Shown: piece by piece, positions 13,102 to 62,049 of the stretch
Layout: every line of letters begins with the position of its first letter
Position numbering within the stretch: the first letter of the stretch is position 1
IMG/VR virus record: IMGVR_UViG_3300021559_000009
Location: 1-64,000 of that record
DNA length: 64,000 nucleotides
Origin: an uncultured virus (IMG/VR IMGVR_UViG_3300021559_000009)
Lineage: Duplodnaviria > Heunggongvirae > Uroviricota > Caudoviricetes
Direction: 5' to 3' (one strand)
Notes under the pieces: model-generated
What the model was told of the DNA's origin: nothing
The model's input: only the letters and a program-made list of their open reading frames with translations
The model's database searches: none
Position numbers and translations under genes: made by a program

Positions 13102-13103
13102 GA

Positions 13104-37532: not shown

Positions 37533-38711
37533 CTAGATCACCTTGGGCTCAGTGGAAGCTGGCCACCAGTAGCCGAGCAGTCCCATGGTGGAGCCGGATA
37601 TCGGGATGGATTCGATCATCACTTGATCGTTTTCGTTGCCGCCTAGAACATTGATGCGCCCAGTCGCGGCATCGCCGACATAGAAGCCGACGTGTCCCTC
37701 AGTACCGGACGGAGACCCGCGCCAGAACACGGCGATCGCGCCCAGCCGCGGCGTGTCGATCTTGGTAAAGGCTGGAGAGGTCGTAAAGCTGCGTGCCATT
37801 GCGTTAATGCCTGTGAGCGTGATGCCGGCCTTGCGCAACATCGCTCCGGCAAAGATCGCGCACCACGGTTCGCCGTCTGCGCCATAGCCGGCGAGGTCCA
37901 CGTATTTCTGAATGCCGTGATTGTCGGGCAGCTCGTGAAAGCCGATCTCTGCGCGCGCAAGGGTGAGCCATGGAGGTTCGCTTGCCACGCCGGCAGGGAC
38001 CGTCGCAGCGGGTGCGCTCAAGCCCTCGAATGCCCAATCGACACTTCCCTTGCCGTCGATGCCTACGGCGCGCGCGGCTGCGGGTGTCAGGTCGATGCCG
38101 GCCAGGTTGGTGTGACGGCCACCCATGTCGGTGCCGGTCTCGGCTTGGGGCCGTCCGCCGGTCTGCCAATAGGGATCGTGCGTGTTCCAGGGACCGACAT
38201 CGACGATATCGCAGACGGCATCGCCCTTCGGTCCCCAGACATGGACCCGGGGCCGCGTGCCTGGGAAACGATAGGGCAGGGCGACACCCAGCTCAGTATC
38301 ATTGATGACGTGGTTGTCGTAGGCGCTGGTATTGGGGTCGGAGGCGCCACCGAATTCCGTGGCCGTGATGCCGGTCTGGCGATCCGTAGCGGGTTCAGGG
38401 ATAGGCTTGGGCGCTGGAGGCGGCTGCGGAACGCTCACCGGTGGACTCGGCGCAGGCACGACAGGAACTTGCGGGAGCTGTCCGGCGATCAGGGCGTCCT
38501 TTGCACGACTCCCTGCGCTCGACCCAAGCTCATAGCCCAGCGCCCAGCAAAAACCGGCCGTCAGAACGCCGAACACGCCCCCCGTTAGGGTCAACGCGAC
38601 ATCGCCGGAAACGTCAGGCTTGATCCAGCCAGTGAGCAGCAGGTAGCCGAAAACCAGATAGCCAAAGATAACAAGGAATGAAACGATCGCTGTGCGGGTC
38701 CGGTCGCTCAT
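37533..38711 (-). CDS. endolysin fusion: 2-TM holin-like N-terminus + RlpA-like DPBB + TIGR02594/NlpC-P60 (CHAP-like) domain
   Basis: Two TMs then YELGSSAGSRAKD; ATEFGG...VALP...DVGPW...IDLTPAA; PPWLTLARAEIG...PWCAIF...GHVGF...LGGNENDQV. Confidence 0.82.
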   Translation of the reverse strand: MSDRTRTAIVSFLVIFGYLVFGYLLLTGWIKPDVSGDVALTLTGGVFGVLTAGFCWALGYELGSSAGSRAKDALIAGQLPQVPVVPAPSPPVSVPQPPPAPKPIPEPATDRQTGITATEFGGASDPNTSAYDNHVINDTELGVALPYRFPGTRPRVHVWGPKGDAVCDIVDVGPWNTHDPYWQTGGRPQAETGTDMGGRHTNLAGIDLTPAAARAVGIDGKGSVDWAFEGLSAPAATVPAGVASEPPWLTLARAEIGFHELPDNHGIQKYVDLAGYGADGEPWCAIFAGAMLRKAGITLTGINAMARSFTTSPAFTKIDTPRLGAIAVFWRGSPSGTEGHVGFYVGDAATGRINVLGGNENDQVMIESIPISGSTMGLLGYWWPASTEPKVI

Positions 38712-38717
38712 TCCTTT

Positions 38718-40109
38718 TTATGCTCCTATGCAAATCCAGGACGCTGTCGTCGCTGCCGCGCTCACGAACCCTATAGTCAAGGTAGTCGCAGTTACAGTCA
38801 TGTTGGTCGTTACGGGAGCAGCAACAGTGCAAAACGGTATGTTTGCAAACGCGGTGCCAAAATTGAACGAGCAAGTGCTAGCATTGCTGGTAAATGTCGC
38901 GCGTCCAGCAAAATCAGTCGCTCCTGTTCCAAGCGCGAATCCCGCGCAGGTGTTTACGACGGGCACGCTTGTGGAGACGCTAGAGAGATGTCCATTATTG
39001 TCAAACACGAGCGATTGGTTGTTAAGACCGGCAGCGTTGCTTGTGCTAATTTGCACTTTGGTCGGGACGTTGCTCCCGCTCGGCGCCGCGGAGACGATCG
39101 CCTGTATCTGTGCCGCATTGCGCTGAGCGGCGTTCGAGAAGCCGCTGAAATTGACGATGCCGAGCACATCGCTATTGAGAACCGCGCCGCCGCTTCTGTT
39201 CTTTTGGAGATTGTAGGAAGCAGCTGACGCATCGGAAGTCGTATTCTGGTTGACGTGCGCTGGAGTGGCAGTCACGCTTGAGGCGCACGAGACCGTGTTG
39301 TTCGCGTCGATCGTGCAACCGCTCACGGTTGGGGCGCCACCAGCGCCTCCGCCCAACATGACTGCGTTTGCGGTAAGCGCGCCCGACGATGCTAGCGTGT
39401 TAGCGGAGTTGAAATAGGGAACGCCTCCGCTAGTGCCGCCCGTGAGCCCTGTACCGCCAAAACCAACGGCAATGGCGGTTCCTTGCCATACGCCGGTCCC
39501 GATCGTTCCAACGGTCGTGATGTTTCCCTGCACCGCCGCGGGGAGCGTGGACGAGATCGACGGCACGCCTCCGGCCGACGTAACGAGCGCGCCATTGTTG
39601 GCAGTCGCGAGTCCCGACACCACTGCGCCGCTCGCGGCGTACCACGCAAGCTGGTTAATTGTACCGCTGTTGACGCCATTGGTGTTGCCACAGTCCTTGA
39701 GGTCCCCGGTAGTGTCTGAGAAGCACGCGAAGTCGTTGATGGTGACAGGGAGGCCGGTAGTGATAGGCAATCCCTGCGTCACACCATTGAGAGTCCAGGT
39801 GAAACCGCCAGTTGCGCCGCCGAAATTATCAAGCGCGAAACCGCCGCCGGTTCCGGTGACGTTGAAACAAAGGCGGTTGTAGGGACCCGAAAAGAACCCG
39901 CTGAACTGGCATATGCCGAAGCCGCTCGCGGTCGCGTTGAGGCTCGTTGGATTGGCGCCTGCGGGATCGGGCCCGCCATCACCGATGACACCCGTTGTGA
40001 TCCACTTGGTGACGTGACCCGGCGTGACGTTGCCGCTCTGCCGAACTTGCTGCGCGCTCGCGGGGAGAGAGGCGAGGAGAGCGGCTAGAATCGTAAGGAT
40101 TTTTTTCAT
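38718..40109 (-). CDS. tail-fibre-like protein with Sec signal peptide
   Basis: MKKILTILAALLASLPASA; fibre repeats GTINQLAWY and ITTVGTIGTGVWQGTAIAVGFGGTG. Confidence 0.7.
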   Translation of the reverse strand: MKKILTILAALLASLPASAQQVRQSGNVTPGHVTKWITTGVIGDGGPDPAGANPTSLNATASGFGICQFSGFFSGPYNRLCFNVTGTGGGFALDNFGGATGGFTWTLNGVTQGLPITTGLPVTINDFACFSDTTGDLKDCGNTNGVNSGTINQLAWYAASGAVVSGLATANNGALVTSAGGVPSISSTLPAAVQGNITTVGTIGTGVWQGTAIAVGFGGTGLTGGTSGGVPYFNSANTLASSGALTANAVMLGGGAGGAPTVSGCTIDANNTVSCASSVTATPAHVNQNTTSDASAASYNLQKNRSGGAVLNSDVLGIVNFSGFSNAAQRNAAQIQAIVSAAPSGSNVPTKVQISTSNAAGLNNQSLVFDNNGHLSSVSTSVPVVNTCAGFALGTGATDFAGRATFTSNASTCSFNFGTAFANIPFCTVAAPVTTNMTVTATTLTIGFVSAAATTASWICIGA

Positions 40110-40177
40110 GGAAGCCTCTTTTACGCTACCCAAAACTCGTTTACAACTCGCTGGCTAGCAAACAGGAGAACAAGCGC

Positions 40178-40687
40178 ATGCCTTCCACCCTAGAGGATTT
40201 TGTAGACAATTTGGAAAAAAGCCCAAGCTCCATCGAGATGAACCGCCACTTCGACGTATTCGTGGACGCCATGCGCGACGTGCGGCAGCGACTGGAAAAC
40301 CTTGAGCTGGCGCACATCAAGAGCGGAGTTCAGGTGGCGGCGCATGAAACGAAGCTCGTTGACAATGGCGTCGTTATCGCCTCGCTGGAGCGCGATCGGA
40401 CCGATCTCAAGAAGCGCCAGGACGCCATAGAGAGCAAACCGCTTGCTCACGATGACCGGCTCGACGAACTGGAAGCGCGAGTGCGCATAACGGAAGGCGC
40501 CATTGGGGCGCTTGGCGGCAAGATCGATAAACCGCCGGCAAAAACGGAAGCGCATCCAATTGCTCCTGCTCCGGCAAAAAAAGTCGAAGCGCCTCCAACT
40601 GCTCCTGCTCCGACAAAACCGTGGTTTGGGGCCCAGAGCAAAGAACATGAGACCCCGCCCCCGATGGGTGCTCCGGTACCAGCTTAA
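40178..40687 (+). CDS. opposite-strand coiled-coil protein with Pro/Ala-rich tail
   Basis: AGGAG SD; protein-like composition. Confidence 0.7.
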   Translation: MPSTLEDFVDNLEKSPSSIEMNRHFDVFVDAMRDVRQRLENLELAHIKSGVQVAAHETKLVDNGVVIASLERDRTDLKKRQDAIESKPLAHDDRLDELEARVRITEGAIGALGGKIDKPPAKTEAHPIAPAPAKKVEAPPTAPAPTKPWFGAQSKEHETPPPMGAPVPA

Positions 40688-41172
40688 GACAGGTCAATTC
40701 CCACGAGGTAGATATCCGCCGTCGCCGCGACGGGCTGAGCCGTCGTAAGCGCGAACCAAATATTGAGCAGCCCGCCGATCGTCCCGAGGTTCGCCGACGA
40801 GAACCGCGTGCCGCTCCCGAACGCCGCGAGCGTGGCGTTAAGCAGCGCGTTGGCGGTCGTAAGCGTTGAGTACGCCTGCGCAGCTGCCACGATCGGCGTG
40901 CCCGCCTTCGCTGCCTGTGGGTAGAACCCGCCCACGGCTGCCGTTAAACTGAGCGAGGCGTTCGTCACTATGATCCCAGTAAGCGCAAAGGCCGTTACGC
41001 GCTGCGGGATCGCGATCGGCTGGTCACTGGTCGTGTTGAAGTTGGCGCCGCGTAGCGAGGCGAGAACGCGCTGAGCCGCGAGCGCTGCGCCGCCGTCACC
41101 AATGACGCCTGGCGCGACCCACACAGGCAGATGCCCTGGAGTAATGTTGCCGCTTTGCTGGACAAAACCCAT
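40684..41172 (-). CDS. putative virion structural protein
   Basis: N-terminal QQSGNITPGH...GVIGDGG shared with the 38718 gene; beta-rich. Confidence 0.65.
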   Translation of the reverse strand: MGFVQQSGNITPGHLPVWVAPGVIGDGGAALAAQRVLASLRGANFNTTSDQPIAIPQRVTAFALTGIIVTNASLSLTAAVGGFYPQAAKAGTPIVAAAQAYSTLTTANALLNATLAAFGSGTRFSSANLGTIGGLLNIWFALTTAQPVAATADIYLVGIDLS

Positions 41173-41175
41173 CGG

Positions 41176-42276
41176 CTACACCACGACCATGATGCTATCG
41201 TCAGGGCCATACACTCGCACGCGTCTAATGCTCAATGGCCAGTCGCCACCACCTGGCTGGTTGCCGCAGGTGATGTAGAGCGAATAGCCCAGGTAGTCGG
41301 GAGTGTTGGTCACATTCTCACACGACGAAAAAGTGCCGGCTGGAGCCCCAGGCGGGTAGCTCGGTGGCGCCGTGCGGGAGTACGTCAGGCGATTCGGCGC
41401 GAACTCTTTGTCATCAAAATAGCGCTCCATGAACCCCGTGCCGCCTCCGGTAACGGTGTCGATGAGCAAGTGGCCAACCGTGTGCAGGTCCGTACCATCG
41501 AATTTCGGATTGCCAAGGTCGGCGAACGTCGGTTGCGGGAACTGTCCACTCTGCAGAGGTGGATATGTAGTGACACCCTTTGAAAAATCCCCACAATTGA
41601 AACCGATCGACCCGTTCTGTCCGGCCTCGACGGGAAGGCCGGCGAACCGCGTCTGTGGAAAAAACTCCAAGAAATCGATTTCCGTGCCTAGAATACCATT
41701 CCACCAATCGACGCCCCAAAAAGCAGGAAAGCCCGCGCCGCCGCGCGCGAGGCGCTGGTCGAACGTGAACTGAAAATCAATGTACCAAGGCGGACGGAAG
41801 AAACGACCGTGATTGTTGGCTCTAAGCACCGCCATGTTTGCGGCGCTAGCATTCCCCAATGAGCCAGGGAACCAATTGCTGGCCAGCGTTGGCTGGTTAT
41901 TTTGATAGTACGCGCCGGGTCGCGCCTGGGCGATCCGAAGGATGCCGTTGCTGACCGACAACGCGCTCGCAGGAATGTTCGGGATCAGGCCATAAGCAGG
42001 GTTTTCTCCCGGCTGCCCAATGTAGCTGTTGGCAACCCACCAGTCCGTTGTCGCGGTCGAGGTGTTGGCGTTGTTGATGTCGATGCGCGACAGGTCGGTG
42101 AATGGACCAGACTGAAACACAAGTTTCGGCAGGCCGTGGGCAACCGCCTGCAGTGGAGGCGTCGCATCGAGCGCGACTTGCATGGGGTCGAGGATCGCTT
42201 TCAGCGCGTCATCTGACGCGCCGATGCTTGTTCGTATCTGCTGCAAGGCTGCAAGCGTGGCAGGTTGGATGCTCAT
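41176..42276 (-). CDS. GH16-like (ConA fold) glycoside hydrolase
   Basis: GFPAFW...TEIDFLE (ExDxxE), HTVG, RYFDD, WPLSIRRVRVY. Confidence 0.7.
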   Translation of the reverse strand: MSIQPATLAALQQIRTSIGASDDALKAILDPMQVALDATPPLQAVAHGLPKLVFQSGPFTDLSRIDINNANTSTATTDWWVANSYIGQPGENPAYGLIPNIPASALSVSNGILRIAQARPGAYYQNNQPTLASNWFPGSLGNASAANMAVLRANNHGRFFRPPWYIDFQFTFDQRLARGGAGFPAFWGVDWWNGILGTEIDFLEFFPQTRFAGLPVEAGQNGSIGFNCGDFSKGVTTYPPLQSGQFPQPTFADLGNPKFDGTDLHTVGHLLIDTVTGGGTGFMERYFDDKEFAPNRLTYSRTAPPSYPPGAPAGTFSSCENVTNTPDYLGYSLYITCGNQPGGGDWPLSIRRVRVYGPDDSIMVVV

Positions 42277-42289
42277 GGTGAGCACCTCC

Positions 42290-44737
42290 CTACGCGGTTA
42301 CAGGAGGGGCATTGCCGGGCGACGAGTTCCAGCCTGACGCAGTCGAGACGTACCAATTGCCCTGGTTGTTCTTGGTCCACACGATGCCGATTTTGTCGAT
42401 CGTGAGCGAGGCACCGCTTCCATTGGCGAACGGCACGTTGTCCCGGAGAATGACGAAGCCGTAGGGAGCCGTAGCGCCAAGCGACCAGACGTGGCCCGCA
42501 GCATCCGTTATGGTCGCACCGCCTACAGGCGTCGTGCCACTGATCGTAGTCCCAGGAGGAGACGTAGTTCCCGGAGGGAGTCCCGCTGCGTTGGCGAGGA
42601 TTGCAGCGAACTGCGTCAAGGCGCTCTGGATTTGCCCGTAAACGCTTTGTAGCTGCGCGAGCGTCGTCGGGTCTATGATGGCGGCCATGTTGATCCCCTT
42701 GATGTGGATGCCCGTCTTGCAGTTCTCGATTGTAACACGAGCGAACCTGACATCGGTAGCCCCAGCCGGCAAATCGACTAGCAGCGTCGGATGCGTAGCG
42801 CGCGACTGCGCCAACGCGGCGCGTATCTGGTCATCAGTCGCCACCACGGCGTCTGCGATGGGCGTCGAGCCGTTGGTCGTACCGTAGAGGCGGTTCTCCA
42901 GCGTCCCAGCCCCCGCAGCGTATGGGACCGTAGTGAACGCCGACAGGAAGCTGCACCCGCCCACGAACATGGCGTAATTGGCAGCCCCGCCCAACGTCGT
43001 GCTCAAAACCTCGGCAGGACCAGAGACCGCGACGGCCCCGGCTGATTGCATGTTATGAACGCAGCCCTCGACCGTAACTTGGCTTGCACCCATCACCGAC
43101 ACCAGGACCGGATTGATAGCGCTACCTGTAGGCGTGTCGTTCCACATGTCACGCACGACGACGTTTGCGCTGTCGGCCAACACGTTAGTCACGTTGAGGT
43201 CGGCAGAGCCGGCGAGCATCGCCATCAGTGATGCAACGCCACCTTCAATCTGGGCGCCAACGGCGCAATTTTCAAAGTTGAAATCCCGCAACTCGACGAG
43301 CGCGAAGTTCACACCATCGACGAAGATGCCAGCGGCGCTCGCTGCGATGAAGATCGGCTCTTGCAAGAGGACGCGGCCAGAAAATGCGTCCTCAATCGTT
43401 ATCGCCGTATCAGCGGCATTCTTGACGTGCAAGCCGCTCAACGTGACGCGTGATCGCCCTTGAATGTCGATGCCGATCCCCGGCGTGTTACCGCAATCGA
43501 TGATCGTATTCGGCCACCCATCGCCGATGATCTGTACATCGCACACCGGCACCGTGATCGGCTTGCGCAGCGCGAGCGTCCCGACCGGGATGTGCACGAC
43601 TGGCTTGCTGCCATTGAGCGCGGCGGCTTGCGTGATAGCGGCTTGGAGCGCGGTGCCGTCGTCCGTGATCGGCACCTCGAAGACCTGACGGCTCGTCAAC
43701 AGGGGCGTAGGCGGCAACACCGGCATCAATGGCAACGTCAGCGAGGACACAACCGCGTCATCGACGGATCGCAACCGACTGGCTATCGGCGATACCGTGT
43801 ATTTGTTGCCGACAGAGATGATGTCGCCGCCGTTGGACGAGGTCACAGTGACGGGGCCGGCAATGGTGCTGTCCGTAATCAGCAATGGACCGCCGTTGCC
43901 CATGTAGATGCCGCTGTCGGCGACGCAGTTCTGAACCCGCGTCTGAGCGGCGTTTGTGTAATAGAAGACCTCGTTGATGAACTGCCGCGAGCCTTTTGAA
44001 TAACAATCCCGAAAATTGAAATTCCCGGTATTGCCGATCTGGATATCGGCAAATGTCGAACCGAGGAATTGGCAGCCATAAGCGTGAAACATGCCCGCGC
44101 CACCGGCCGCAATGTTGTCCTGCGGAGTATTGGCAATGCCAGTTCGGCAATTCACGAACTCGCAGAACCAATGCCACCAGTCCAAGCAATTGCCATTTAG
44201 TAGCAGGACGCCATTCTTGAGGCCGAGGAACTTACACCGCAGGACTGTACTCTCGGCCTCGCCAATGCCCGCATCACCCGCCCTGATGCCTATCGAGGCG
44301 TTCTGAAATACCAGATCAGCGTATTCGTTGCCAGTACCAAACTGGCGCGGTGGTCCGCCAACGAGCGCATTCTGATCCACCAGAATGGTCGTATTGCGGC
44401 CCCCATCCAGCGTCAGCCGACCAAGTCGCCCGTAGGCGCAACCGTCAAGATGCAGCAGCGTGCCGTCAGCGGCGCCGCCCCACTTGATGGTTGTGGTCGC
44501 GGGATCGGCTCCGATGATGCCCGCCCCGAGACCACCGAGCAGCGTGACGGTCTGGGTGACGAGGTAAGTCCCGGACGGGATAAACAGGTTGCGCGGTCTG
44601 CCAGTCGCCGTGAGATCGCTCACCGCCGCCTGCAAAGCGGCGGTGTCGTCGGATATGCCGTCTCCCTTTGCGCCGTAATCACGCTTGAGGTTGGACCAAC
44701 TGGCGAAAGGACCGACGAACTCTTCCTGCGCACCCAT
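42290..44737 (-). CDS. beta-helix tailspike/depolymerase (pectate lyase 3 / GH55-like, two helix units)
   Basis: YGAKGDGISDDTAALQAAV...LFIPSGTY; second unit DDGTALQAAI...VHIPVGT. Confidence 0.82.
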   Translation of the reverse strand: MGAQEEFVGPFASWSNLKRDYGAKGDGISDDTAALQAAVSDLTATGRPRNLFIPSGTYLVTQTVTLLGGLGAGIIGADPATTTIKWGGAADGTLLHLDGCAYGRLGRLTLDGGRNTTILVDQNALVGGPPRQFGTGNEYADLVFQNASIGIRAGDAGIGEAESTVLRCKFLGLKNGVLLLNGNCLDWWHWFCEFVNCRTGIANTPQDNIAAGGAGMFHAYGCQFLGSTFADIQIGNTGNFNFRDCYSKGSRQFINEVFYYTNAAQTRVQNCVADSGIYMGNGGPLLITDSTIAGPVTVTSSNGGDIISVGNKYTVSPIASRLRSVDDAVVSSLTLPLMPVLPPTPLLTSRQVFEVPITDDGTALQAAITQAAALNGSKPVVHIPVGTLALRKPITVPVCDVQIIGDGWPNTIIDCGNTPGIGIDIQGRSRVTLSGLHVKNAADTAITIEDAFSGRVLLQEPIFIAASAAGIFVDGVNFALVELRDFNFENCAVGAQIEGGVASLMAMLAGSADLNVTNVLADSANVVVRDMWNDTPTGSAINPVLVSVMGASQVTVEGCVHNMQSAGAVAVSGPAEVLSTTLGGAANYAMFVGGCSFLSAFTTVPYAAGAGTLENRLYGTTNGSTPIADAVVATDDQIRAALAQSRATHPTLLVDLPAGATDVRFARVTIENCKTGIHIKGINMAAIIDPTTLAQLQSVYGQIQSALTQFAAILANAAGLPPGTTSPPGTTISGTTPVGGATITDAAGHVWSLGATAPYGFVILRDNVPFANGSGASLTIDKIGIVWTKNNQGNWYVSTASGWNSSPGNAPPVTA

Positions 44738-46260
44738 TAGTTCTGCACCAGCTTGTCAGTCAGAAGCGTTTGCCATACCTGAATGTTTTTGACATGCATG
44801 GGCCAATTACCGCAGCCTCCACCAGGGCAACCGGCTGTCATTCCAGCACTGCAGGCCGAGGTCGTAAACGAAGCCGTACAACCACTGGAAATAATCAATA
44901 TAAAGCCGTTGCTGCCATCGGCTTCCGTAAACGCCCCATCATATGGACTCGCCGTGCATGTCGCCTGCTTGCCCGAGCCTTTGGCAAAGTAGGTGCAGTT
45001 ATTGGCATTAGTTGCGATCATCAACGACGACGCCACGGCTCCTCGGTTAAAGCTCAAAGCATAGACGCCCACCTTACCTGGAGTGCCGCTGGTTTGCGAT
45101 GCGACCGTTGTCGCTGCTGTCGTGGAGTTGCCGTTTCCTATGTAGCTACCAGTAGCAATCGACCCGGCAGACAGCATTTGCGTCACATGAAGCGTCACGC
45201 CGTCGCTATCGATCGAGCCGGTAAAAACCGCGTTACCGGGGCAGGTATCTGCGTCTACCAGATAGCCGTAAAATCCCACTCCGTTGTTTTTTGCCGGAGG
45301 TACCCACAACTGATCAAAGGTGTGAAACGTATTGCCGTCCAAAACCGGATTGCATTCCGTCGAGCGCAGCGGCGGCGTGCCAAAGTAGTCCGAAAAAATA
45401 GAACCGCCCGAGCATGAGACGCCGCAGAGATTATCGTGGAGGAAGTTGTTGAGCAACACGCTACCATTGGCAGAGAAACAATCACAATTATCGGTTTCGA
45501 TAAAATTCGAACCAGGTATCGTTCCGGGCCATGAAGTCAACCACCACGCAGGCCACCGCCAAGGTGAACCGGCTATGCCGTTCGGCGCCTTGGTCTCATC
45601 GAATGAAACGTATGCGCGAGCATATAGACCGTTTTTAAAACTGATGCCTCGGTAGGTTTCCGGCACGCCCGAGGGCACGTTCAGCGAAGTCCATGTGCTG
45701 ATGCCGTAATTGCTGTCGCCCTGTGAAACATTAGTTAGTGTCAACCCGGTAACGGAATCAACCGATAAGGTGTTAGTGGCTTGAATGATCGAAGCCATGA
45801 ACTCGCAGCTAGCGAGCGTCTGCGCCGGACTAACTGTGTATGTCCCCGTTCCGCCGGAGCCTGCCGTGATAGTCGTCCCTATTGACGGAGCGCATCCTCC
45901 GGCTCCGACACCAGGACTCAATGTCATTCCAATTTTGAGTACCGCAGAAGACACAGCCGTTACTGTCATCGTGCCGGTGTTGGCGATCGACGCAGTCACG
46001 TCTACGCGGGTCAAACCCTGAGTTCGCCAATTGAATCCGGCCGCATTGGTGGCGCCAAGATCGATCGTCCCAAGCGATGTCATTGGATCAAAAAAGGTAC
46101 ACGTATTAAATCCAAAAGCACCAGCGGTACTCGGAACGGCGTCAGGACAACCTTGTGAAGAACCGCTTGAAAAAACTTGAAATATAGCAAATCCTGCCGT
46201 TGCTAATTTAGCGACCAACAGAATACCGACGATTGATAGTGCAATTAAAAGACGGCGCAT
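44737..46260 (-). CDS. secreted-type, Cys-rich GH16/ConA-like appendage protein
   Basis: Signal peptide MRRLLIALSIVGILLVAKLATA; WPAWW...IETDNCD; FHTF; WPMHVKNIQVWQ; GTGTYTVS repeats. Confidence 0.6.
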   Translation of the reverse strand: MRRLLIALSIVGILLVAKLATAGFAIFQVFSSGSSQGCPDAVPSTAGAFGFNTCTFFDPMTSLGTIDLGATNAAGFNWRTQGLTRVDVTASIANTGTMTVTAVSSAVLKIGMTLSPGVGAGGCAPSIGTTITAGSGGTGTYTVSPAQTLASCEFMASIIQATNTLSVDSVTGLTLTNVSQGDSNYGISTWTSLNVPSGVPETYRGISFKNGLYARAYVSFDETKAPNGIAGSPWRWPAWWLTSWPGTIPGSNFIETDNCDCFSANGSVLLNNFLHDNLCGVSCSGGSIFSDYFGTPPLRSTECNPVLDGNTFHTFDQLWVPPAKNNGVGFYGYLVDADTCPGNAVFTGSIDSDGVTLHVTQMLSAGSIATGSYIGNGNSTTAATTVASQTSGTPGKVGVYALSFNRGAVASSLMIATNANNCTYFAKGSGKQATCTASPYDGAFTEADGSNGFILIISSGCTASFTTSACSAGMTAGCPGGGCGNWPMHVKNIQVWQTLLTDKLVQN

Positions 46261-46270
46261 TAATCACCTA

Positions 46271-47182
46271 TCAGCTAGTTGGGCAGGAGCCGTGCACTGT
46301 GGTAAAATACGTGCAAAGACGACCTTCAAGGTTTGTAACATCAGTAGAGGATAAACTGCCTCCAATAGTGATTGCACCAAGCTGTAAAGCACTCCCGAAA
46401 TTCACCGTCGATCCAGCAACACGCTGAGCAAGGATGGCAACGTTACCATTGAGAACGGCGGCAGAAGCTTCTGTGCTATCGCCAACATCGGATGCATTCT
46501 TGTAATGTTGAACTGCACCAGCACCAGAACGATTAACCACATAATGTCCGATGCTGTCAGCATTCAATATCCCTGTAGCGTTTGTTGCGGAATTAGCATC
46601 ACCGTAAAAGTTGCCATCATTGTATTTCGGAAACAGTCTCGTGGAATTAGTTGCCGCCAACACAAGACCCATAACCGTACCGCCCGATGCGCCGCTTGTC
46701 GCATTTGTGAAACTCCATGCCGATATGTGCGAAGAATTCTGCGTGAAATGCGGTGAAGTTGCAGTGGAAGGATTGAAACCCGTATCGATATAGATCGTTG
46801 TGCTGGCATCGACACCGCTCCATCCATTATTTGCAGAAAAACAAGCAGTAGCCCCAGCGCAACCTGTTGAAACATTACCGTTTGCGGTCCCATTAAAAGT
46901 GCCAGGATTGACAGCATTGACGAGAGAATTTGCACTTGAATTGACAGCAAAAACATAAAGCACATCAAGTTTGGCAAACACACCATCAGTTACCATCCCG
47001 CATATCAATGTCGTAATAGCACTTGAATTTTGACTACCATCAAGCATACCATTATACGTAGTCGCTTGAGAGCAGCCGCCGCCTCCTGCCGAGGCCGAAA
47101 CGAGCGGCAGCCAGCCAGCAGCGCGAACAGCGACAGCAGCAAGTACAAAGAAAACACCAATGACGGCGGCGAGCCGTTTCAT
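46271..47182 (-). CDS. secreted-type LamG/ConA-like protein
   Basis: MKRLAAVIGVFFVLAAVAVRA; AKLDVLYVFA...YIDTGFNPS. Confidence 0.65.
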   Translation of the reverse strand: MKRLAAVIGVFFVLAAVAVRAAGWLPLVSASAGGGGCSQATTYNGMLDGSQNSSAITTLICGMVTDGVFAKLDVLYVFAVNSSANSLVNAVNPGTFNGTANGNVSTGCAGATACFSANNGWSGVDASTTIYIDTGFNPSTATSPHFTQNSSHISAWSFTNATSGASGGTVMGLVLAATNSTRLFPKYNDGNFYGDANSATNATGILNADSIGHYVVNRSGAGAVQHYKNASDVGDSTEASAAVLNGNVAILAQRVAGSTVNFGSALQLGAITIGGSLSSTDVTNLEGRLCTYFTTVHGSCPTS

Positions 47183-47439
47183 GGCTTCTTTTCCTCCCCA
47201 GCACTTTCCTTCGCCTTCTCGGCTGCGTCGCGCTCGGCTTTCAGCGCCTCGGGTAGCTTGACCTTCGCAAGATCGCAAAAGTCCTGGAACCTCATGCGAA
47301 AGCCGTAAAGAGCCGCCTCACAGAGCAGCGGAATGATCGTCGCTTGATCGGCAAGCGTCAGCGGAATGTTGACCGTGGACTGCTGAGCGCCGGCACAAGA
47401 TGGCGCAAGCAGAGCGAAAACAAGTAAAACCTTGCGCAT
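47179..47439 (-). CDS. small signal-peptide protein (fibre chaperone-like)
   Basis: MRKVLLVFALLAPSCAGA followed by a helical mature part. Confidence 0.6.
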   Translation of the reverse strand: MRKVLLVFALLAPSCAGAQQSTVNIPLTLADQATIIPLLCEAALYGFRMRFQDFCDLAKVKLPEALKAERDAAEKAKESAGEEKKP

Positions 47440-47447
47440 TCAGCATC

Positions 47448-47798
47448 TCACTTCGGTGCAATGGGCGTATAGGTGCTAACCGCGTTTTGCTGCAGTATTT
47501 GCTGATCGAATCCGCTCACATCAGAAACGATCCCATTTTTTATGGTATCGGCCCAAAAGGTCAGCACCTGCCCCGCCGTGCAAATACCGTTTATGCTGCC
47601 ATTGCAGCCCTTTTGATACGTCGCGATCATCTTCGCAATTGTGACATTAGGTGGCGTAGCCGTAGCGTCGCTATAAGTTTTTGTGCATCCGGCGCCAGAG
47701 CATAGGCCGACAGGTGCTGTTAGCGTGATCGTCAATGTATCGGCGATAGCCGCAAATGAAGTGCAAACCAGCGCCATAGCGATTAAAGTGCGTTTCAT
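47448..47798 (-). CDS. small signal-peptide protein with two Cys pairs
   Basis: MKRTLIAMALVCTSFAAIA. Confidence 0.65.
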   Translation of the reverse strand: MKRTLIAMALVCTSFAAIADTLTITLTAPVGLCSGAGCTKTYSDATATPPNVTIAKMIATYQKGCNGSINGICTAGQVLTFWADTIKNGIVSDVSGFDQQILQQNAVSTYTPIAPK

Positions 47799-47802
47799 TT
47801 TC

Positions 47803-49224
47803 TTACGCTCCCTTCCACGAAGTGCCATCATAGAATACTGGACAAACCACAGACCCTCCACCTGTCGGAGCAGCCAGGAATGTGCAGGCGACCGCGTCGG
47901 TCACATAAGCCATCGCGCCAGTTATGCCTGTTGGCAATCCAGCTACCGTATAGCCCTTTAAAACAACCGGGATAGCTGCGGTGATCGCAGTAGCCGTCAC
48001 CGTTAAGTCAGTTACGCCGCTGCTCTGAATAGACAACGTACCTAGATTATTCCAGGTCGTACCGTTTGCAATGCCTGCGCCAGAAGTAACATTGGTGCTG
48101 CTGTTGACCGTAAAAATAGACTGCCCTGATATGTTTGTATTATTTCCCAATAAAATTGTTGCATAGGCACTAGAAAGAGCATTACTATTTTGAGCATAAA
48201 TAGCTCCTCCCTGACCATTATTGGACAAACTTGATTGTATAGTTGAACTAGCGGTAATGCCATTATTTAACGTAAGTTGCCCATTCCGAGATACGCTAAA
48301 TTCACTCGTAGTGCCGGAAGCGCCGCCATAGAGATTAAATAATGTCGTGCTTGCACCTCTTGCCGTATCCGTAATACGAATAGCAACGACATCCGGCGAT
48401 CCCGTTGTATTCAACGTGCCAGAAAGATCAAGCAAAGATGACGCATTCGATCCGGTAAGAGAATATCCGGTCTCCTTGATCGCTATGCTGTTAGCTTGGC
48501 CAACAACATTGATTCCCTCAGTTCCGAGTGCCCATGCATTGGTAAGCGTTACATTAGTTCCGGCCACCGGCACCTTAATATATGCACCATAGTAATTCGT
48601 AAATGTAGCCGCGCTTGATGCCGCAACCGTGTTGCCGCCAAAAACATCCGTATATGCAGCCGCAACCGTTCCACTCGACGATGTGTCAGTCATTGTCGCT
48701 GCAACATTCGCGTAGCGAATACCGCTCGTAGTCCATGCCGCCGCCGATATGTTGCCGCTCAAGACGAAACTGGCGCCCGCTACAGTAGTCTTTCCATTGA
48801 GCGTCGTGGTTCCTGTCGTACACAAAACATCCGTACCAATGGTGCAGCCGCCAATCGCAACCGAGGTCGCGGTCGCAACCCCGAGCGCAGGCGTAACAAG
48901 CGCTGGCGAGGTCTGCATCACCGCGACCGTACCACTGCCGGTCAGCGTGTATTCTCCAAGCACTCCCGCATTGTCGTAGAGAATGCGCGTCGTCGTCCCG
49001 CTCGTGATCGTGCTAGTTCCAACAGTGAGCCCACCGCCACTGCCACATGCGCCGGAGCCCACAGTGCCGCTGCTGATCGTGAGGCATTGGCCATTTGACC
49101 CGCCCGTAACAGGCGTCGTATTGACGACAATCGTTGTCTGCGCCGAAGCCGTTATGGTCTGCGGGTAGGCAGGCGACAGCGCGAAAAGTAGGCCAAAAAG
49201 AACACCAGCCAAGGTTCGTCGCAT
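47803..49224 (-). CDS. tail-fibre-like protein with signal peptide
   Basis: MRRTLAGVLFGLLFALSPAYP; TSPALVTPALGVATATS repeat; C-terminal YTVAGLP...AYVTDA...VFYDGTSW. Confidence 0.72.
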   Translation of the reverse strand: MRRTLAGVLFGLLFALSPAYPQTITASAQTTIVVNTTPVTGGSNGQCLTISSGTVGSGACGSGGGLTVGTSTITSGTTTRILYDNAGVLGEYTLTGSGTVAVMQTSPALVTPALGVATATSVAIGGCTIGTDVLCTTGTTTLNGKTTVAGASFVLSGNISAAAWTTSGIRYANVAATMTDTSSSGTVAAAYTDVFGGNTVAASSAATFTNYYGAYIKVPVAGTNVTLTNAWALGTEGINVVGQANSIAIKETGYSLTGSNASSLLDLSGTLNTTGSPDVVAIRITDTARGASTTLFNLYGGASGTTSEFSVSRNGQLTLNNGITASSTIQSSLSNNGQGGAIYAQNSNALSSAYATILLGNNTNISGQSIFTVNSSTNVTSGAGIANGTTWNNLGTLSIQSSGVTDLTVTATAITAAIPVVLKGYTVAGLPTGITGAMAYVTDAVACTFLAAPTGGGSVVCPVFYDGTSWKGA

Positions 49225-50579
49225 CACATCACCATGCCATGAATGAAGCCCGTAGTCGCCAGCGTCAACGTCGCACAAGTCGTGGAAGAAATCGCCGCAG
49301 TAATCCCTACCGAATAAACAGCAGGCGGTCCGCCAGCATAATTAACCGATCCAAAACCGCCGGCTGAAATCGGAATACACTCGACCATATTGCCAGATGC
49401 AACACCTGCCGTAGTTGATCCATTACTCGGTGCAGAGGTCGAATTGAACACCATCAACCAGCAAGCCGCCGAACATTCAGCGTAGACACTATAAAGATTG
49501 CCGGCCGCATTTTTAAGAACAAGTGATGACGCTGCCGAACCACCAACGACCGGTGTTATGCCAACCAATGCCGAAGATGACGGAGCAGGACCAACAAATG
49601 GAACAGCGTTCGCCGCAGCAGCAGGACCAAGCGTGATAATGCCTGGACTATCCGGCCGGAGATCGACCACAAGCGCCGTATTAGTTGCCGTAACCGGAGC
49701 AGTGTTTACTGCAACTTGACCTGTCGTAGTTGCAGTACCACCAAAAGCTGCAACATTAACTGGAATATTAGATTGATTACTCGCAACTACAACTGGCGAC
49801 GAATTCGCCATCGTCGCTTGACCATTAACGTTCGCATTCGTGACATCGACATTGAGCGCGTTCGATGTCGATGCAATCACGTTGCCCGCGCCGTCTACAA
49901 CCTGGGATTTTTGCGAAGCGTTCGTCTGGTTGGCAGAGGTCGCGAGCGTCGAGGTATTAAGATTGGTCCCAGCATTTGCGGTAACGGTAGGCGTATTTGT
50001 TATAAAAGCATTGACGCCCGGCACAAGAACCGCCCCCGGCGACGTGCCGTAATTCGCCATCGCGCCGAGGGTGCCGCCAGCCCAGGTCGTTATCGCTGAC
50101 GATCCTCCGCCGCCTCCGCCACCACCGCCGGAACCCGTAGCGAGTCCCGTTCCGCCCGAAAGAACCACGAGGTTAGAAACCGTCCCCGTCTGGTCGATAC
50201 AAGCGATATTGGTGTTGGCCCCGACCGTGTAGGAAAAAAACCCTCCTGGCGCTATTTGGTCTTCATTTGCAACCGCCGTCACACCGAGCGTGCAAGAAAC
50301 GGCTGTCGTCCCGGTATTGTAGGCGACAACAACAATCCCGGCCGGCAGCGCAGTAGTTGCTGAAGAGCCCGTGGCGGTCAGCGTCGCGTAGGCGCCCCCT
50401 GGCGCGAAGCCGCCCACTGTGGCGCTAACCGTGGCGGTGACAGGCAAAGGGTTAGACGCCGAGACAGGGGGGCAGTTATTAACCCCTAGCGTCACACACG
50501 GACGCACAATAGCTTGCGCCGACCCCTCGACATAACTTAGTAAAAGCAGGGCGATGGCAAGCCCGAGTTTGCGGAGCAT
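49224..50579 (-). CDS. virion decoration/fibre-like protein with signal peptide
   Basis: MLRKLGLAIALLLLSYVEGSA; VSASNPLPV; GQATMANSSPVVVASNQS; KNAAGNLYSV beta-sandwich. Confidence 0.68.
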   Translation of the reverse strand: MLRKLGLAIALLLLSYVEGSAQAIVRPCVTLGVNNCPPVSASNPLPVTATVSATVGGFAPGGAYATLTATGSSATTALPAGIVVVAYNTGTTAVSCTLGVTAVANEDQIAPGGFFSYTVGANTNIACIDQTGTVSNLVVLSGGTGLATGSGGGGGGGGGSSAITTWAGGTLGAMANYGTSPGAVLVPGVNAFITNTPTVTANAGTNLNTSTLATSANQTNASQKSQVVDGAGNVIASTSNALNVDVTNANVNGQATMANSSPVVVASNQSNIPVNVAAFGGTATTTGQVAVNTAPVTATNTALVVDLRPDSPGIITLGPAAAANAVPFVGPAPSSSALVGITPVVGGSAASSLVLKNAAGNLYSVYAECSAACWLMVFNSTSAPSNGSTTAGVASGNMVECIPISAGGFGSVNYAGGPPAVYSVGITAAISSTTCATLTLATTGFIHGMVM

Positions 50580-50581
50580 AG

Positions 50582-50809
50582 CTATTTTTCCTCTTTTTCC
50601 TCGCTCGACTTTGTTGGAGGAATGAGTTGGGTATTCGCCTGCGAGATCAGTTTTTGCAATAAGGGGTTGACCTCGTTCCACGGCGCCTCGCCGAGTTTTT
50701 TTATGATCTGGTTGGCTTCAGAAAGCGTTATGGTCCACGTAACATTGCGCTCTTGCGCCAAGACTCCCGCGGGCAGTAACAGCAATATCGCGATAAACGT
50801 GCGCCACAT
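50582..50809 (-). CDS. small signal-peptide protein resembling fibre-adjacent chaperones
   Basis: MWRTFIAILLLLPAGVLA then ITLSEANQIIKKLGEAPWNEVNPLLQKL. Confidence 0.65.
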   Translation of the reverse strand: MWRTFIAILLLLPAGVLAQERNVTWTITLSEANQIIKKLGEAPWNEVNPLLQKLISQANTQLIPPTKSSEEKEEK

Positions 50810-51063
50810 CATCGCTTTCTCACAATCCAGTTGGCCGCAAGCACGAACAGCGCGTAAATCGAAAGCGAGGTGATCTGGTAGACATTCGGATCGGGCACTG
50901 ACCACCACAGCCACCACGCGCCGAACACGGTGAGTAGACAAAAAAGGTCGGCAGCAGCCACGAGAGCGCGCTGAGAGAGGGCACGCAGCGCCAGCATCAC
51001 GCCGGCGACGGCCGCCGGCTCGGCGTCACCCTCTTCAACTATCTCGAACTTTCGCTCGGCCAT
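50809..51063 (-). CDS. small membrane protein
   Basis: Two TM segments. Confidence 0.6.
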   Translation of the reverse strand: MAERKFEIVEEGDAEPAAVAGVMLALRALSQRALVAAADLFCLLTVFGAWWLWWSVPDPNVYQITSLSIYALFVLAANWIVRKR

Positions 51064-51280
51064 TACCCACTTCCTCTACTTGCGCTGCAAAGTCCTCGAA
51101 GGTCGGCGTATCGTCCCGCTCGGGCGTCTTGCTACGGTTCTTGCTCACTATAGCAAGATACGCCGCCAAAGTCTTGAGCGCATCCACCTTCTCGCCAAAG
51201 CGAGGGGCGCCCTTGCCCGACTTGACCGCCTCGGTTGCGACGTGGGCAGCGAGCGCCCCAATGTCGTCGTCTATGCTCAT
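51035..51280 (-). CDS. hypothetical protein
   Basis: Coupled ORF. Confidence 0.55.
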   Translation of the reverse strand: MSIDDDIGALAAHVATEAVKSGKGAPRFGEKVDALKTLAAYLAIVSKNRSKTPERDDTPTFEDFAAQVEEVGNGRAKVRDS

Positions 51281-54200
51281 TCGACGGCCTCCGATGACGG
51301 TTCTGACGCCTGTTCAAGTCCCTCGCCCACCCCCGCCCCAACGGCGCCGCCACGCTGGAGCGCCTTTTGAACCTGTTGGCGCACTATCTCGCGTGCCGCG
51401 GGATCGCCAGTCAATCCTTTCTGCACCCAGCGCAGGAAAGCGGGCGAAGTCGCGAGCTTACGCACGAGACCGTAGTAGCTGCCAAGCATTGTTCGTCCAG
51501 TCGCGTCGGCAAAAGGGACGATCTTGGTCGGTGCCATTAATGTCCTTGCAATTGCGCCACCGCGTCCCAAGATCGATGCCCACGGGTGCTCCACTTTGGA
51601 CTGTGCAGACATCGACTTAGCGGTACCCTGCGTCCCCCTGGTTGACATCAAAAAATCCATCTCTTTGGCAAGCTGCTGCATCTGATCGAGCGTCACTCCG
51701 GGGAACATGACCCGCTGCACCTCGGGCGATATCTTGGCAAGTTCCTTGCCCGGCTCAAGTGTCCCCTGAAGGATGCGTTGCGCGTGTACCTGCCGGAGCA
51801 TCTCGAACTCGGGCGAGTCTTCGCCAAACCGCGCGGCGGCGGCGAGGATCAAATCCTCCGAACCTAGAATGCGGTCAACCGCATCAGCGGCGCCCGTCGT
51901 GGGCTTGAGCAAGAACCCGAACGGACCGGCCAGCCGCTTGGCCCGCAAATCAGCCGACTCCTTCTTCGTTGCCGCCTCGATCCCGCCCATCTCGCGCTTG
52001 AGCGTGCCCAGCGGATCCTGTTTAGCGACCGCTTTGGCGGCGTCACCCGCTGCCCGCGCGCGAGCAATTATTTCGGTCACGGTGTCACCAGGCCGCACCG
52101 GTATCTCCAGGCGTCCGCCCAGCATCTCGATGCGCCGCGCCTGCTCGATGAGCTTGGCTGATGCCTCGCGCCCGTGCACCGCCTCCAGCATATTACCGAC
52201 GCTGCGATGTCGCTCCAGAACTTGACGGGCGAAAGCACGACCATCGATCTGATCGGGCACTAAAGTCTTGCTGGCATCTAACATGGCCTGCACGTCGGCC
52301 GCCTTGACGCCTGCCCACAAGTTGGGACCCACCAGACGCGCGACCGTCCTGGTGAGGTCCGAGCGTCCCTCCCTGACGAGCGTGTCGAACAGGTTCTTGG
52401 GATCGGCCGGCATGCCTGACTCAAGCCCGCTTACCACCGCCTGGATATGCTTGTCGGTCAGCGGCCTGATGGCATCGCGGTAGAAATCATCCGCTGCCCG
52501 CAGCGCGCGCGCCGCCTCTTGCAGCTCCGGCACCGCGCCGGGATCGTTGAGAATCTCATCCACCCGGTTGGCAAAAAACTTGAAGGTGCCCTGCTTCACA
52601 TCGGGCGTGAGATCGAGGTGATTGTAATTGGCGCGCAGCACGGAGCGCAGATTGTGCAGCTGCCCGAACGTAGGCGTCGCAGGCTCCTTCTCCCACTCGC
52701 CGGTCGGCACGCCATGCTCATCTAGCTTCTGGACGCCCGCGAGGTCGCGAATCTGCTTGACGATCGAGGGGTAGCGGTTCTCGAACCCTTCCGGCAGCTC
52801 GGCCAGGAACTGCGCGGCGCGCTCGGGGAGCCCCGCCATGTCGGGCAAGTGCCCACCCGCAAGCGCATCAGCCTCGTTGTACATCTTGCGCGCACGCGCC
52901 TGGATACCTTGCTTTACTGCCTTGAGCTTCTCACCCACCATCTGCCACAGATCGCCGGAATTACCTCCTGCCTTGGACACCTTAACGGCACCGTCAATGT
53001 CCTGTTGGATGTCCCGAAACCCTGCATCAATCAGGTTTTCAGCGGCTTTTCGCGCCGCAACTTCGGCCTGCCGCAACCCCTCAACGCGCGCGCTGTGCTC
53101 GCCCGCCTGACCCACGACCCTGCCGAGCGCAGCGCCTACCTCGCCCTCCCGCCTCGCCGCGTGCTCCGCCGCGAGACGCGCGTCCTGCTCAGCAGCGACC
53201 GCTTGCGCACGAACGAGGATCGCCGTACCGGCGCGCTCCGTGGACACCGCTTCGGTCGGACTGGAAATCGAGCCCGCAGGTCTATCGCCAAACTGCTCTA
53301 GGATGTCACCCGCTTTTTTCTCGTAGTGACGAGTAGCCGATTGTAGAAGCGGTTTTTCAGTGTGAAAAGCGGGATCAAACACCTCGTGCACGTTCTGAAG
53401 ATGCGGCGCTCCCTTGGCCCAACCCGACAGCGGAGCCATTGCACCAGGCTCAGTAATGCCTAACATGCGCAATAAAGCGTTCGAAGACTCGTGTTCACCT
53501 CGCTCGCCACCTTGCTCGCCTAACGTAATAGCCGTTTGCAGCCCTTCGGGATCGACGCCAAGAAATTCGGCCGCCACGCCAGGCAGTCCCAACTTGGCGC
53601 CACGCATCCGGGGCAGCACGGAAGCAACACCGCGCCCCATCGCAGTCCCGGCGCCTGCCATCACGCCCGAAGCGCCCAGCTCCATTGCCTCCTCGCCCGC
53701 GGAACGATCGTAGACCCCCGCGAGCGCCATGATCGCGTCGTTAAACCCCTGGCCCACCGCGCCGCCCGCTGCCGCGCCACCGACCGCCCCTGGCAGGCCG
53801 CCCGCGAGACCGCCGCCGATCTCACCCGCAACCGCGCCTACGGTCGGAAAAACGCCGCCCGTCGCCGCGGCGCCGGCTGCCTTCCAGTTCTCAGCGAGCG
53901 ACTCGTGCTCTTCCGACGGCCCTCTGGGACGACGGCGCGTGCCGTTCCGCTCCTGGACGTAGAGACCCTTCGGATCGTTCCTGATCTCAGCGCCGGGATA
54001 ACCGCGCTCCAAAGCGCGACGCTGTTCCCGCTCGTTGACCGCCATGTTGAACAATGAATGAGTCGTGAAATCCACGCTCTCATAGCGCGGCTTGGTACGC
54101 AGATTGCCGCGTGGGTCAAGGAAGTCGGCGCCCTCGGGCACTGCTTCGTAAGAATCTTCATCCGCGACCGACCACGGCTTGGTTCGGGTATTGCCCTGCG

Positions 54201-54384
54201 GATCAAGGAAGTCGGTACCAGGAGAAAGAGCGTCGTACTCCTGCTGGGACGCTACTTTCGGAGGTGGCGCCTTGTAGGCAATGTCGGGCCGGTCCCGCAT
54301 CGGTGCGCGGGGCTCGGCTGCAAGCCCGCGCTCCTTGAGAAGAGAGCGCTCGGCATCGAGCTGCGAGGAATACGCGTCACTCAT
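51277..54384 (-). CDS. large internal virion (ejection) protein
   Basis: 1035 aa, helical, with Gly/Ala TM-like segments; duplicated ALxPGxDFLDPxGNxRTKP motif; position in the podovirus gene order. Confidence 0.7.
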   Translation of the reverse strand: MSDAYSSQLDAERSLLKERGLAAEPRAPMRDRPDIAYKAPPPKVASQQEYDALSPGTDFLDPQGNTRTKPWSVADEDSYEAVPEGADFLDPRGNLRTKPRYESVDFTTHSLFNMAVNEREQRRALERGYPGAEIRNDPKGLYVQERNGTRRRPRGPSEEHESLAENWKAAGAAATGGVFPTVGAVAGEIGGGLAGGLPGAVGGAAAGGAVGQGFNDAIMALAGVYDRSAGEEAMELGASGVMAGAGTAMGRGVASVLPRMRGAKLGLPGVAAEFLGVDPEGLQTAITLGEQGGERGEHESSNALLRMLGITEPGAMAPLSGWAKGAPHLQNVHEVFDPAFHTEKPLLQSATRHYEKKAGDILEQFGDRPAGSISSPTEAVSTERAGTAILVRAQAVAAEQDARLAAEHAARREGEVGAALGRVVGQAGEHSARVEGLRQAEVAARKAAENLIDAGFRDIQQDIDGAVKVSKAGGNSGDLWQMVGEKLKAVKQGIQARARKMYNEADALAGGHLPDMAGLPERAAQFLAELPEGFENRYPSIVKQIRDLAGVQKLDEHGVPTGEWEKEPATPTFGQLHNLRSVLRANYNHLDLTPDVKQGTFKFFANRVDEILNDPGAVPELQEAARALRAADDFYRDAIRPLTDKHIQAVVSGLESGMPADPKNLFDTLVREGRSDLTRTVARLVGPNLWAGVKAADVQAMLDASKTLVPDQIDGRAFARQVLERHRSVGNMLEAVHGREASAKLIEQARRIEMLGGRLEIPVRPGDTVTEIIARARAAGDAAKAVAKQDPLGTLKREMGGIEAATKKESADLRAKRLAGPFGFLLKPTTGAADAVDRILGSEDLILAAAARFGEDSPEFEMLRQVHAQRILQGTLEPGKELAKISPEVQRVMFPGVTLDQMQQLAKEMDFLMSTRGTQGTAKSMSAQSKVEHPWASILGRGGAIARTLMAPTKIVPFADATGRTMLGSYYGLVRKLATSPAFLRWVQKGLTGDPAAREIVRQQVQKALQRGGAVGAGVGEGLEQASEPSSEAVE

Positions 54385-57625: not shown

Positions 57626-57626
57626 T

Positions 57627-58580: not shown

Positions 58581-58592
58581 GGCAGCCTCCTA

Positions 58593-59054
58593 TCATAACC
58601 TCGCGAACACAACCTGCCGCGTGAACAGCCGCCCCATGCGCTCCTTGATCATGTCGTGCGGCACATCGCTCATGGCCTCAACCATCACAGCATCGACGCC
58701 CTGGTTCTTTCCCCACCTCACGAACTCGTCGTAGAAAGCGACGGCCTCGCGATCGTGCCCCTCCTTAACGAACACGAACATCTCCTGCACAACGGGCTTC
58801 ATCTCCAGCGGGTGCGCGCGCGTGACCGTCGCAAGCGCCACACCGTGCTCCTGGTAGAGGAACAAAAACTCGTTCGAGTAGATGATCCCGCGCAGCCAGC
58901 CCGCGAGATCGCGCGCGGTGCGATGCGGATACGCCTTGAGCAGACGGTCCGTGATCCAGCCTCCGTGGCGGTCGAGATCAGGCACCTCGAACCGGCGCAT
59001 CGCAATTTGCTCTCGCACCACCTCGCGCTTTGCAATTTCAGCTGTTACGGCCAT
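58593..59054 (-). CDS. GNAT-fold-like tail-region protein
   Basis: QEMFVFVK...FVRWGKNQGVDAV; typical position before ejection genes. Confidence 0.55.
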   Translation of the reverse strand: MAVTAEIAKREVVREQIAMRRFEVPDLDRHGGWITDRLLKAYPHRTARDLAGWLRGIIYSNEFLFLYQEHGVALATVTRAHPLEMKPVVQEMFVFVKEGHDREAVAFYDEFVRWGKNQGVDAVMVEAMSDVPHDMIKERMGRLFTRQVVFARL

Positions 59055-59223
59055 ACGCGCCTCATTGCCCCAATATAAACTTCGCTTGCCGCATGTACGC
59101 AGCCTGCACTTGCGCCGGCTGTGCCGCACATACCGACTGCTGATCCGCCGGTTTTGCCAACGCGATATTGTTTTCCAGGATGCAAAGCATCAACGCTAGT
59201 TGCACTACCGTCATTTCCAACCC

Positions 59224-62048: not shown

Positions 62049-62049
62049 A

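Follow-up and report, generated by a model that had tools for sequence, protein, structure and literature searches.

Fibre-like late genes with export-type leaders and even cysteine counts in an uncultured podophage and its relatives

Introduction

Tailed-phage virions normally assemble in the cytoplasm of the host, where their known fibres fold without leader peptides, and the particles are held to be complete before lysis. Other phage products are routed through the Sec system, among them pIII and pVIII of the filamentous phages, the signal-peptide (SP) and signal-arrest-release (SAR) endolysins and the spanins, with disulfides in pIII and the spanins. Here we describe a block of eight late genes whose products carry export-type leaders in IMGVR_UViG_3300021559_000009, an IMG/VR record of an uncultured member of the Caudoviricetes. 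The window, the whole stretch of DNA analysed, comprises 64,000 nucleotides (1-64000) of a record of 67,213 bases, the start of which recurs at 66508 and so gives a complete circular map.

Fibres with phage-like parts are also exported by bacterial cells. The mosaic adhesive trimer (MAT) fibres of Bdellovibrio, as described in the consulted sections of PMC10769870, have a signal peptide, a conserved N-terminal domain and phage-like parts, with an S74 domain in 13 of 21. For tailed phages, our literature search brought up no description of virion fibres that are exported, although the original Cellulophaga and Bcep781 papers may mention leaders. The consulted sections of PMC3556154, PMC12407071, PMC8951688, PMC10820202, PMC5723332, PMC13412088 and PMC10769870 do not describe them. 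Host hits in dsbA and tatC are reported in the consulted part of PMC13412088, yet with no twin-arginine (Tat) motif in the phage proteins. A lead concerning LME-1 proved unsupported, the word 'signal' being absent from the consulted main text of PMC12407071. The feature is real and widespread, and the literature search found no explanation for it.

Results

The eight genes lie on the minus strand with ATG starts at 50809, 50579, 49224, 47798, 47439, 47182, 46260 and 40109, exactly where a preliminary description of this DNA had placed them, and we refer to them by these positions. The first seven follow one another without interruption and are closely coupled, with overlaps or gaps of 0-10 nt. 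The signal-peptide-like N-termini claimed for them were also borne out. In all eight products an n-region with K/R is followed by an uncharged h-region and a cleavage site of small residues. All pass the home-made tripartite (n/h/c) heuristic with which leaders were called. Only 3 of 202 other called open reading frames (ORFs) pass it (at least 60 aa, both strands of the whole genome, spurious calls included and the minus-strand block left out), namely an endolysin N-terminal membrane segment, the Rossmann motif of an epimerase and one antisense ORF. The eight proteins depart from the criterion for known phage fibres, which are cytoplasmic and leaderless. No canonical lipobox was seen by eye in the eight genes, and strong membrane segments are absent from the mature chains, where 19-residue hydropathy peaks at 1.69.

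Related contigs, here called the clade, were fetched by means of the two-helix membrane gene next to the block, the adaptor gene and the fibre N-terminal motif, and many are 60-67 kb long. The main fibre, encoded by the 40109 gene, runs from its leader through a QSG..TPGH motif, an invariant cysteine-pair domain and a GTIGTGVWQG repeat shaft to a C-terminal beta-sandwich. A profile of its mature N-terminal 85 residues matched 298 longer proteins, of which the best 120 were examined. The motif is present in 118 of these best 120, and 112 of the 118 pass the heuristic, so hardly any homologue starts downstream of the leader. Five of the six failures have a whole or partial leader and reflect a start-call problem. 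Ungapped identity among the homologues is 21% in the leader versus 64% in the motif.

Misassigned start codons, or N-termini that are hydrophobic by chance, could mimic such a pattern, and the heuristic does yield false positives (the three given above). Against this, codons 8-46 of all eight genes contain no competing in-frame start with a ribosome-binding site (RBS) score >2, the starts are tightly coupled to the upstream stops, the homologues pass in the proportion just stated and cysteine parity provides an independent signal. We give an artefact almost no probability, and at the level of sequence the comparative data have already refuted it.

Alanine at positions -3 and -1 is the signal-peptidase pattern. 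Among the 40109 homologues it occupies -3 in 90 of 108 and -1 in 85 of 108. These alanines, often followed by glutamine, and the short h-regions speak against uncleaved anchors, which would tether the fibres at the inner membrane to be collected there, perhaps with the two-helix membrane protein. The paired cysteines do so too, as they imply a periplasmic and not a cytoplasmic mature chain. Tethering has in its favour that the two-helix gene, whose family occurs in 36 clade loci, nearly always adjoins the leader block; we nevertheless judge it very unlikely. The two-helix protein, for which the atlas search yielded no named family, may be a holin or an assembly factor, both being guesses. In one short contig (L150) a lysozyme-like gene directly follows it.

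With cleavage sites placed by eye, the mature chains of all eight genes have even cysteine counts (Table 1), in keeping with the cysteine pairs noted in the preliminary description. The clade-wide set was drawn from 890 non-redundant proteins, 71 of which are leader-positive, at least 200 aa long and from relatives. Nine of the 71 were judged not to be fibres and removed manually (proteins resembling outer-membrane ones or secreted hydrolases, and one adaptor false positive), and the 62 left, with five from the window, made a final set of 67. Cysteine is present in 66 of these, 58 of the 66 have an even count, and the density is 1.70 Cys per 100 aa. The corresponding values were 50/101 even and 0.38 per 100 aa in a core-protein control, and 8/32 even and 0.22 per 100 aa in outgroup fibres from unrelated phages with the GTIGTGVWQG repeat. 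Unrelated phage fibres with this repeat are leaderless in 57 of 58 cases, one having a leader. Even counts were also found in 95 of 101 40109 homologues of at least 300 aa.

Leader and cysteines are also absent together. The domain of the 303-aa protein is leaderless and free of cysteine over the aligned part in three of three cultured phages (phiM12 gp398, Mwe-JY13 and RHph_N3_13), and carries cysteines in two leader-bearing relatives, with a C37-C61 pair common to both. P0231 (start as in L122:9986), the sole clearly leaderless 40109 homologue in the set, is without both invariant cysteines. The 507-aa protein is weakly similar (pairwise E 1.7e-4) to its leaderless 366-aa neighbour, which has 3 Cys, and Bradyrhizobium phage ppBjS10J-1 has a leaderless protein with 60% identity to a 40-residue stretch of the 473-aa protein. 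Among close relatives, cysteine positions in the 451-aa protein are identical in L081 and L083, and the 86-aa protein shows 5-7 amino-acid changes in the leader versus 2 in the mature part, the leader character being kept.

The leaders, the cysteine parity and the leaderless, cysteine-poor homologues strongly support the earlier proposal of export with disulfide-dependent folding. From these sequence comparisons we are highly confident in predicting Sec or Tat export, AxA-type cleavage that would expose the QSG..TPGH motif, and oxidative folding. Disulfide folding is not the sole reason for export, because candidate Tat-type leaders occur in the relatives and the Cellulophaga cases discussed below are cysteine-poor. 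A pattern for twin-arginine-type leaders flagged 11 of 430 ORFs; 4 were discarded by eye, and seven clade block proteins remain as candidates, versus 0 of 378 in the outgroup. Second leader-bearing blocks in G002 and G003 include twin-arginine-like leaders.

At this position of the late operon, which is flanked by ejection and lysis genes, most inspected relatives likewise have several leader-bearing genes in a row, with bodies that are for the most part unrelated to one another. The only motif-bearing gene of the complete relatives G001 and G004 has a leader, and in G004 leaders are borne by all five genes that separate the membrane-protein gene from the first late gene without one. The leader-bearing fibre gene stands directly behind an adaptor gene in L116, L120 and L112. 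Tail-core families of the clade gave no leader calls, except for 1 of 32 adaptors. In L018:4525-12062, from an unrelated phage with baseplate-like genes, three fibre-like genes also have leaders, and two of these are Cys-poor.

Homology to virion fibres is predicted from domains in the relatives' proteins. Among leader-bearing proteins of relatives, Peptidase_S74 occurs in 6 of 71, PHROG tail- or head-category matches in 13 of 62, and the RcGTA head-spike fibre domain (NF048003; E 3.9e-41 to PDB 6tb9) in two. The eight window proteins belong to no named family. None has a Pfam or NCBIfam match, and the sole PHROG match, for the 303-aa protein, is to an unknown-function family. The fibre motifs quoted in the preliminary description were located at residue 197 of the 40109 product and residues 105 and 425 of the 49224 product. 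Its 'lectin-like folds' found no support, and its 'chaperone-like' label for the small ORFs reflects their size and position. The AlphaFold model of the 40109 fibre is poor (mean pLDDT 54); Foldseek gave no match to it at E 0.001, and the C-terminal beta-sandwich reached only Z 6.1, the best value, with VIA.

The QSG..TPGH motif is common to the main fibre and a leaderless, Cys-poor 162-aa protein of the same region. The latter had 572 matches, with a leader in none of the best 120. Its model (pLDDT 83) best matched the trimeric capsid proteins KHP40 cement, Pam1 and GP4 at borderline scores (Z 8.1-8.7); against 7dou and 7eel the values, also borderline, were Z 8.7 and a root-mean-square deviation (rmsd) of 3.2-3.6 over 110-113 aligned residues. 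Searching PDB sequences with the motif profile found nothing. For the N-terminal domain the atlas held no named family, T4 gp9/10-N and Mtd_N at 0.84-0.85 being leads only.

The exported, oxidised proteins might never join the particle. They would accumulate in the periplasm and, set free by lysis, act as unattached adhesins, as decoys or as enzymes that break down polymers, making nearby cells or the soil matrix ready for the progeny, whose adsorption could come from leaderless spikes. Enzyme-like cargo in the relatives' blocks (GDSL esterase, GH141-like, pectate-lyase-like and an NF038122 metalloprotease) fits such a role, as does the second block away from tail genes in G002 and G003. However, S74 chaperones belong to the virion, as do the head-spike fibre and head-decoration domains, and leader-bearing Cellulophaga proteins carry virion tandem mass spectrometry (MS/MS) annotations. 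Free proteins would also have no evident need for an N-terminal motif in common with a cement-like cytoplasmic paralogue. We consider free release unlikely. The metalloprotease gene (L124:8347-9213) is itself leader-bearing and lies inside the fibre block.

The proteins might also serve the infected cell or the lysogen, inside it or at its surface, through periplasmic receptor masking, superinfection exclusion or surface adhesins. The genome encodes a serine resolvase (PF00239) and sugar-modifying genes, so temperate life with surface conversion is possible, and relatives have leader-bearing outer-membrane-protein-like genes. Bdellovibrio, moreover, displays signal-peptide, S74-bearing fibres (consulted sections of PMC10769870). 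The block genes are, however, translationally coupled in a late operon between ejection and lysis genes and are not free-standing morons; no product of the block was recognised as an outer-membrane translocator. Without a strong membrane segment or a canonical lipobox in the mature chains, host-surface display, which the preliminary description had offered as an alternative, becomes less likely, and we regard a cell-envelope role of any kind as distinctly improbable. The outer-membrane-protein-like genes lie in the relatives' lysis region (L086:16748, L115:12992, L124:13440, L129:13879 and L138:13121), and the 73 homologues found are almost all without an informative name.

The virus is a short-tailed phage (podophage) with a leaderless tail core, and its lysis cassette bounds the block (Table 1). 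Two adaptor paralogues stand in tandem in the window and three in some relatives (L120, G003), which suggests stacked tail rings; the second adaptor and the nozzle have one inserted domain in common. Genes similar to the sugar-modifying cluster, which may glycosylate the virion or the host surface, occur in G001, G002 and G003. Soil metagenomes were the best-matching public runs for the genome. No close cultured relative was found in sequence searches, and the 40109 N-terminus, the adaptor and a small protein of a relative all remained without a tblastn match in cultured phages. The search for a host found no prophage in a long bacterial contig, only two short contigs in metagenome-assembled genomes (MAGs) of Acidobacteriota; the leader motif of the outer-membrane-protein-like gene may point to an Alphaproteobacterial host. 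A single RNA library yielded no more than three short contigs, and these do not show expression.

Table 1. Features of the window, in descending order of position, with mature cysteine counts where given.
Feature	Position	Strand	Length (aa)	Cys	Remarks
SU10-type adaptor	62979-63728	-			PF24175; leaderless
Adaptor paralogue	62050-62979	-			Leaderless
Probable nozzle	59559-61859	-			Leaderless; label from position and size
Probable ejection proteins	51277-58562	-			Large, leaderless, cysteine-free; label from position and size
Podovirus tail core as a whole	51277..63728	-			Leaderless
Two-helix membrane protein	50809..51063	-	84		Conserved; ends FVLAANW; directly upstream of block
Small helical protein	50582..50809	-	75	0	Leader
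G/A/S/T-rich fibre-like protein	49224..50579	-	451	8	Leader
Fibre-like protein	47803..49224	-	473	6	Leader
Protein	47448..47798	-	116	4	Leader
Helical protein	47179..47439	-	86	2	Leader
Protein	46271..47182	-	303	6	Leader; PHROG unknown-function family
Protein	44737..46260	-	507	16	Leader
Beta-helix tailspike-like protein	42290..44737	-	815	14 (whole protein)	Leaderless; PF12708, PF13229; PHROG tail spike and fibre
Protein	41176..42276	-	366		Leaderless; no family match
Paralogue of main fibre	40684..41172	-	162		Leaderless; QSG..TPGH motif and predicted jelly roll
Coiled-coil ORF	40178-40687	+	169		Antisense within late operon; weak DUF7310 match
Main fibre	38718..40109	-	463	10	Leader
CHAP/TIGR02594 endolysin	37533..38711	-			N-terminal membrane segments; lysis cassette begins here
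Small histidine-rich ORF	33576-33833	+			Leader; outside block
DnaJ-domain protein	16894-17610	-			PF00226
Sugar-modifying cluster	11342-15704	-			NAD epimerase PF01370, RGP-like match, two unassigned genes
Serine resolvase	10330-11049	-			PF00239; possible integrase
Probable portal	1919-3643				26-27% identity to annotated portals

Discussion

We propose that the products of the eight late genes, with their export-type leaders, probably fold oxidatively in the periplasm and dock on finished particles at lysis. The head, tail core and some spikes would form in the cytoplasm, while a varying assortment of fibres, spikes and small helper proteins would go out via the host Sec system. Signal-peptidase cleavage at an AxA-type site would then unmask the QSG..TPGH motif, and disulfides would form in the periplasm. 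The particles would meet the exported proteins upon breach of the inner membrane and collect them once the holin has acted and before the outer membrane ruptures, or else directly after release. On balance we favour this timing, and the exposed motif as a docking or trimer-nucleating element. That the exported proteins join the virion, as we infer, seems rather more probable than that they do not. The phage would be likely to gain adhesins stabilised by disulfides, and could freely take up secreted bacterial domains as receptor-binding tips. Periplasmic folding followed by loading at lysis had been suggested in the preliminary description; the folding part stood, and the support for loading is indirect.

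Several observations weigh against this proposal. Leaderless receptor-binding candidates are present, namely the 815-aa spike of the window, a 447-aa protein in G004, a 256-aa post-nozzle protein in G001 and a 1041-aa protein in G005. Every whole genome examined retains at least one, and L123, L127 and part of L134 run mostly on leaderless fibres. The exported proteins therefore need not sit on the particle. The cytoplasmic 162-aa paralogue would get to any common docking site first, and the second leader-bearing fibre-like blocks lie away from the tail operon (G002:C1:17342-23731 and G003:C1:5040-10702). The clade is uncultured, so that a place of its proteins on the virion is predicted from genes, and MS/MS of phage preparations, as in the Cellulophaga case, can pick up co-purifying proteins. 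As to the comparisons themselves, the leader caller is a heuristic and not SignalP, and curated Tat models match 2 of the 7 twin-arginine candidates, both below cut-off. Most sequences behind the 40109 profile have a leader and cysteines, a bias that carries over to the best 120 matches, and the proteins of the parity set are related, hence not independent. Cysteine density alone is not specific, because some leaderless proteins are Cys-rich (the 815-aa spike with 14 Cys and a 631-aa protein of L123 with 18).

If docking at lysis is correct, host secretion and Dsb systems act as phage assembly factors, and lysis becomes a step of morphogenesis, with its timing belonging to assembly. The whole secreted-protein repertoire of bacteria would be open to phages for new tips. 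Such a route would also account for the missing annotation of many such fibres, and for their expression the leader would have to be stripped and an oxidising compartment used. The chances seem to us evenly balanced that many tailed phages of diderm bacteria possess a second, periplasmic assembly line, in which fibres, head spikes and small chaperones are exported via Sec or Tat, fold oxidatively and join the particle at lysis via the unmasked motif, with the cytoplasmic paralogue as placeholder or partner.

The block resembles the fibres and tailspikes of known podoviruses (T7 gp17, P22-type, S74-chaperoned) in its position between ejection and lysis genes and in the combination of a conserved N-terminus with a variable C-terminus, and relatives have S74 and beta-helix domains. 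The head-spike domain in relatives likewise recalls the RcGTA head spike fibre Rcc01080 (PDB 6tb9). Known podovirus fibres and Rcc01080 are cytoplasmic and leaderless, whereas the clade proteins bear leaders and paired cysteines.

A further likeness is to two Cellulophaga phages, in which consecutive late genes with leaders encode proteins labelled 'structural protein, experimental MS/MS' in GenBank (phi18:3 gp085-087, KC821620, and phi10:1 gp091-094, KC821618). All seven pass the leader heuristic. Other structural proteins tested were negative (9/9 and 6/6), and gp095, which lacks the MS/MS annotation, passes. The annotation notes examined make no mention of leaders. These proteins have no detectable similarity to the eight, contain 0-3 mature Cys and come from phages of a Bacteroidota host, differences that count against the parallel. 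Two Burkholderia phage proteins, Bcep781 gp49 (AF543311) and BcepC6B gp19 (AY605181), combine a leader with an even cysteine count (14 and 4). The GenBank note for gp49 reads 'possible tail fiber; possible signal peptide domain', and gp19 sits between tail fibre and holin genes. Both are single genes outside any block, with no similarity to the eight.

The Bdellovibrio MAT fibres indicate, in the consulted sections of PMC10769870, that export can yield S74 fibres behind a signal peptide; they differ in being chromosomal cell proteins and not phage late genes. Among the Sec-routed phage proteins, those of inoviruses assemble at the membrane without lysis, and endolysins and spanins are not virion parts. 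The parts of the system described here are themselves variants of known fibres.

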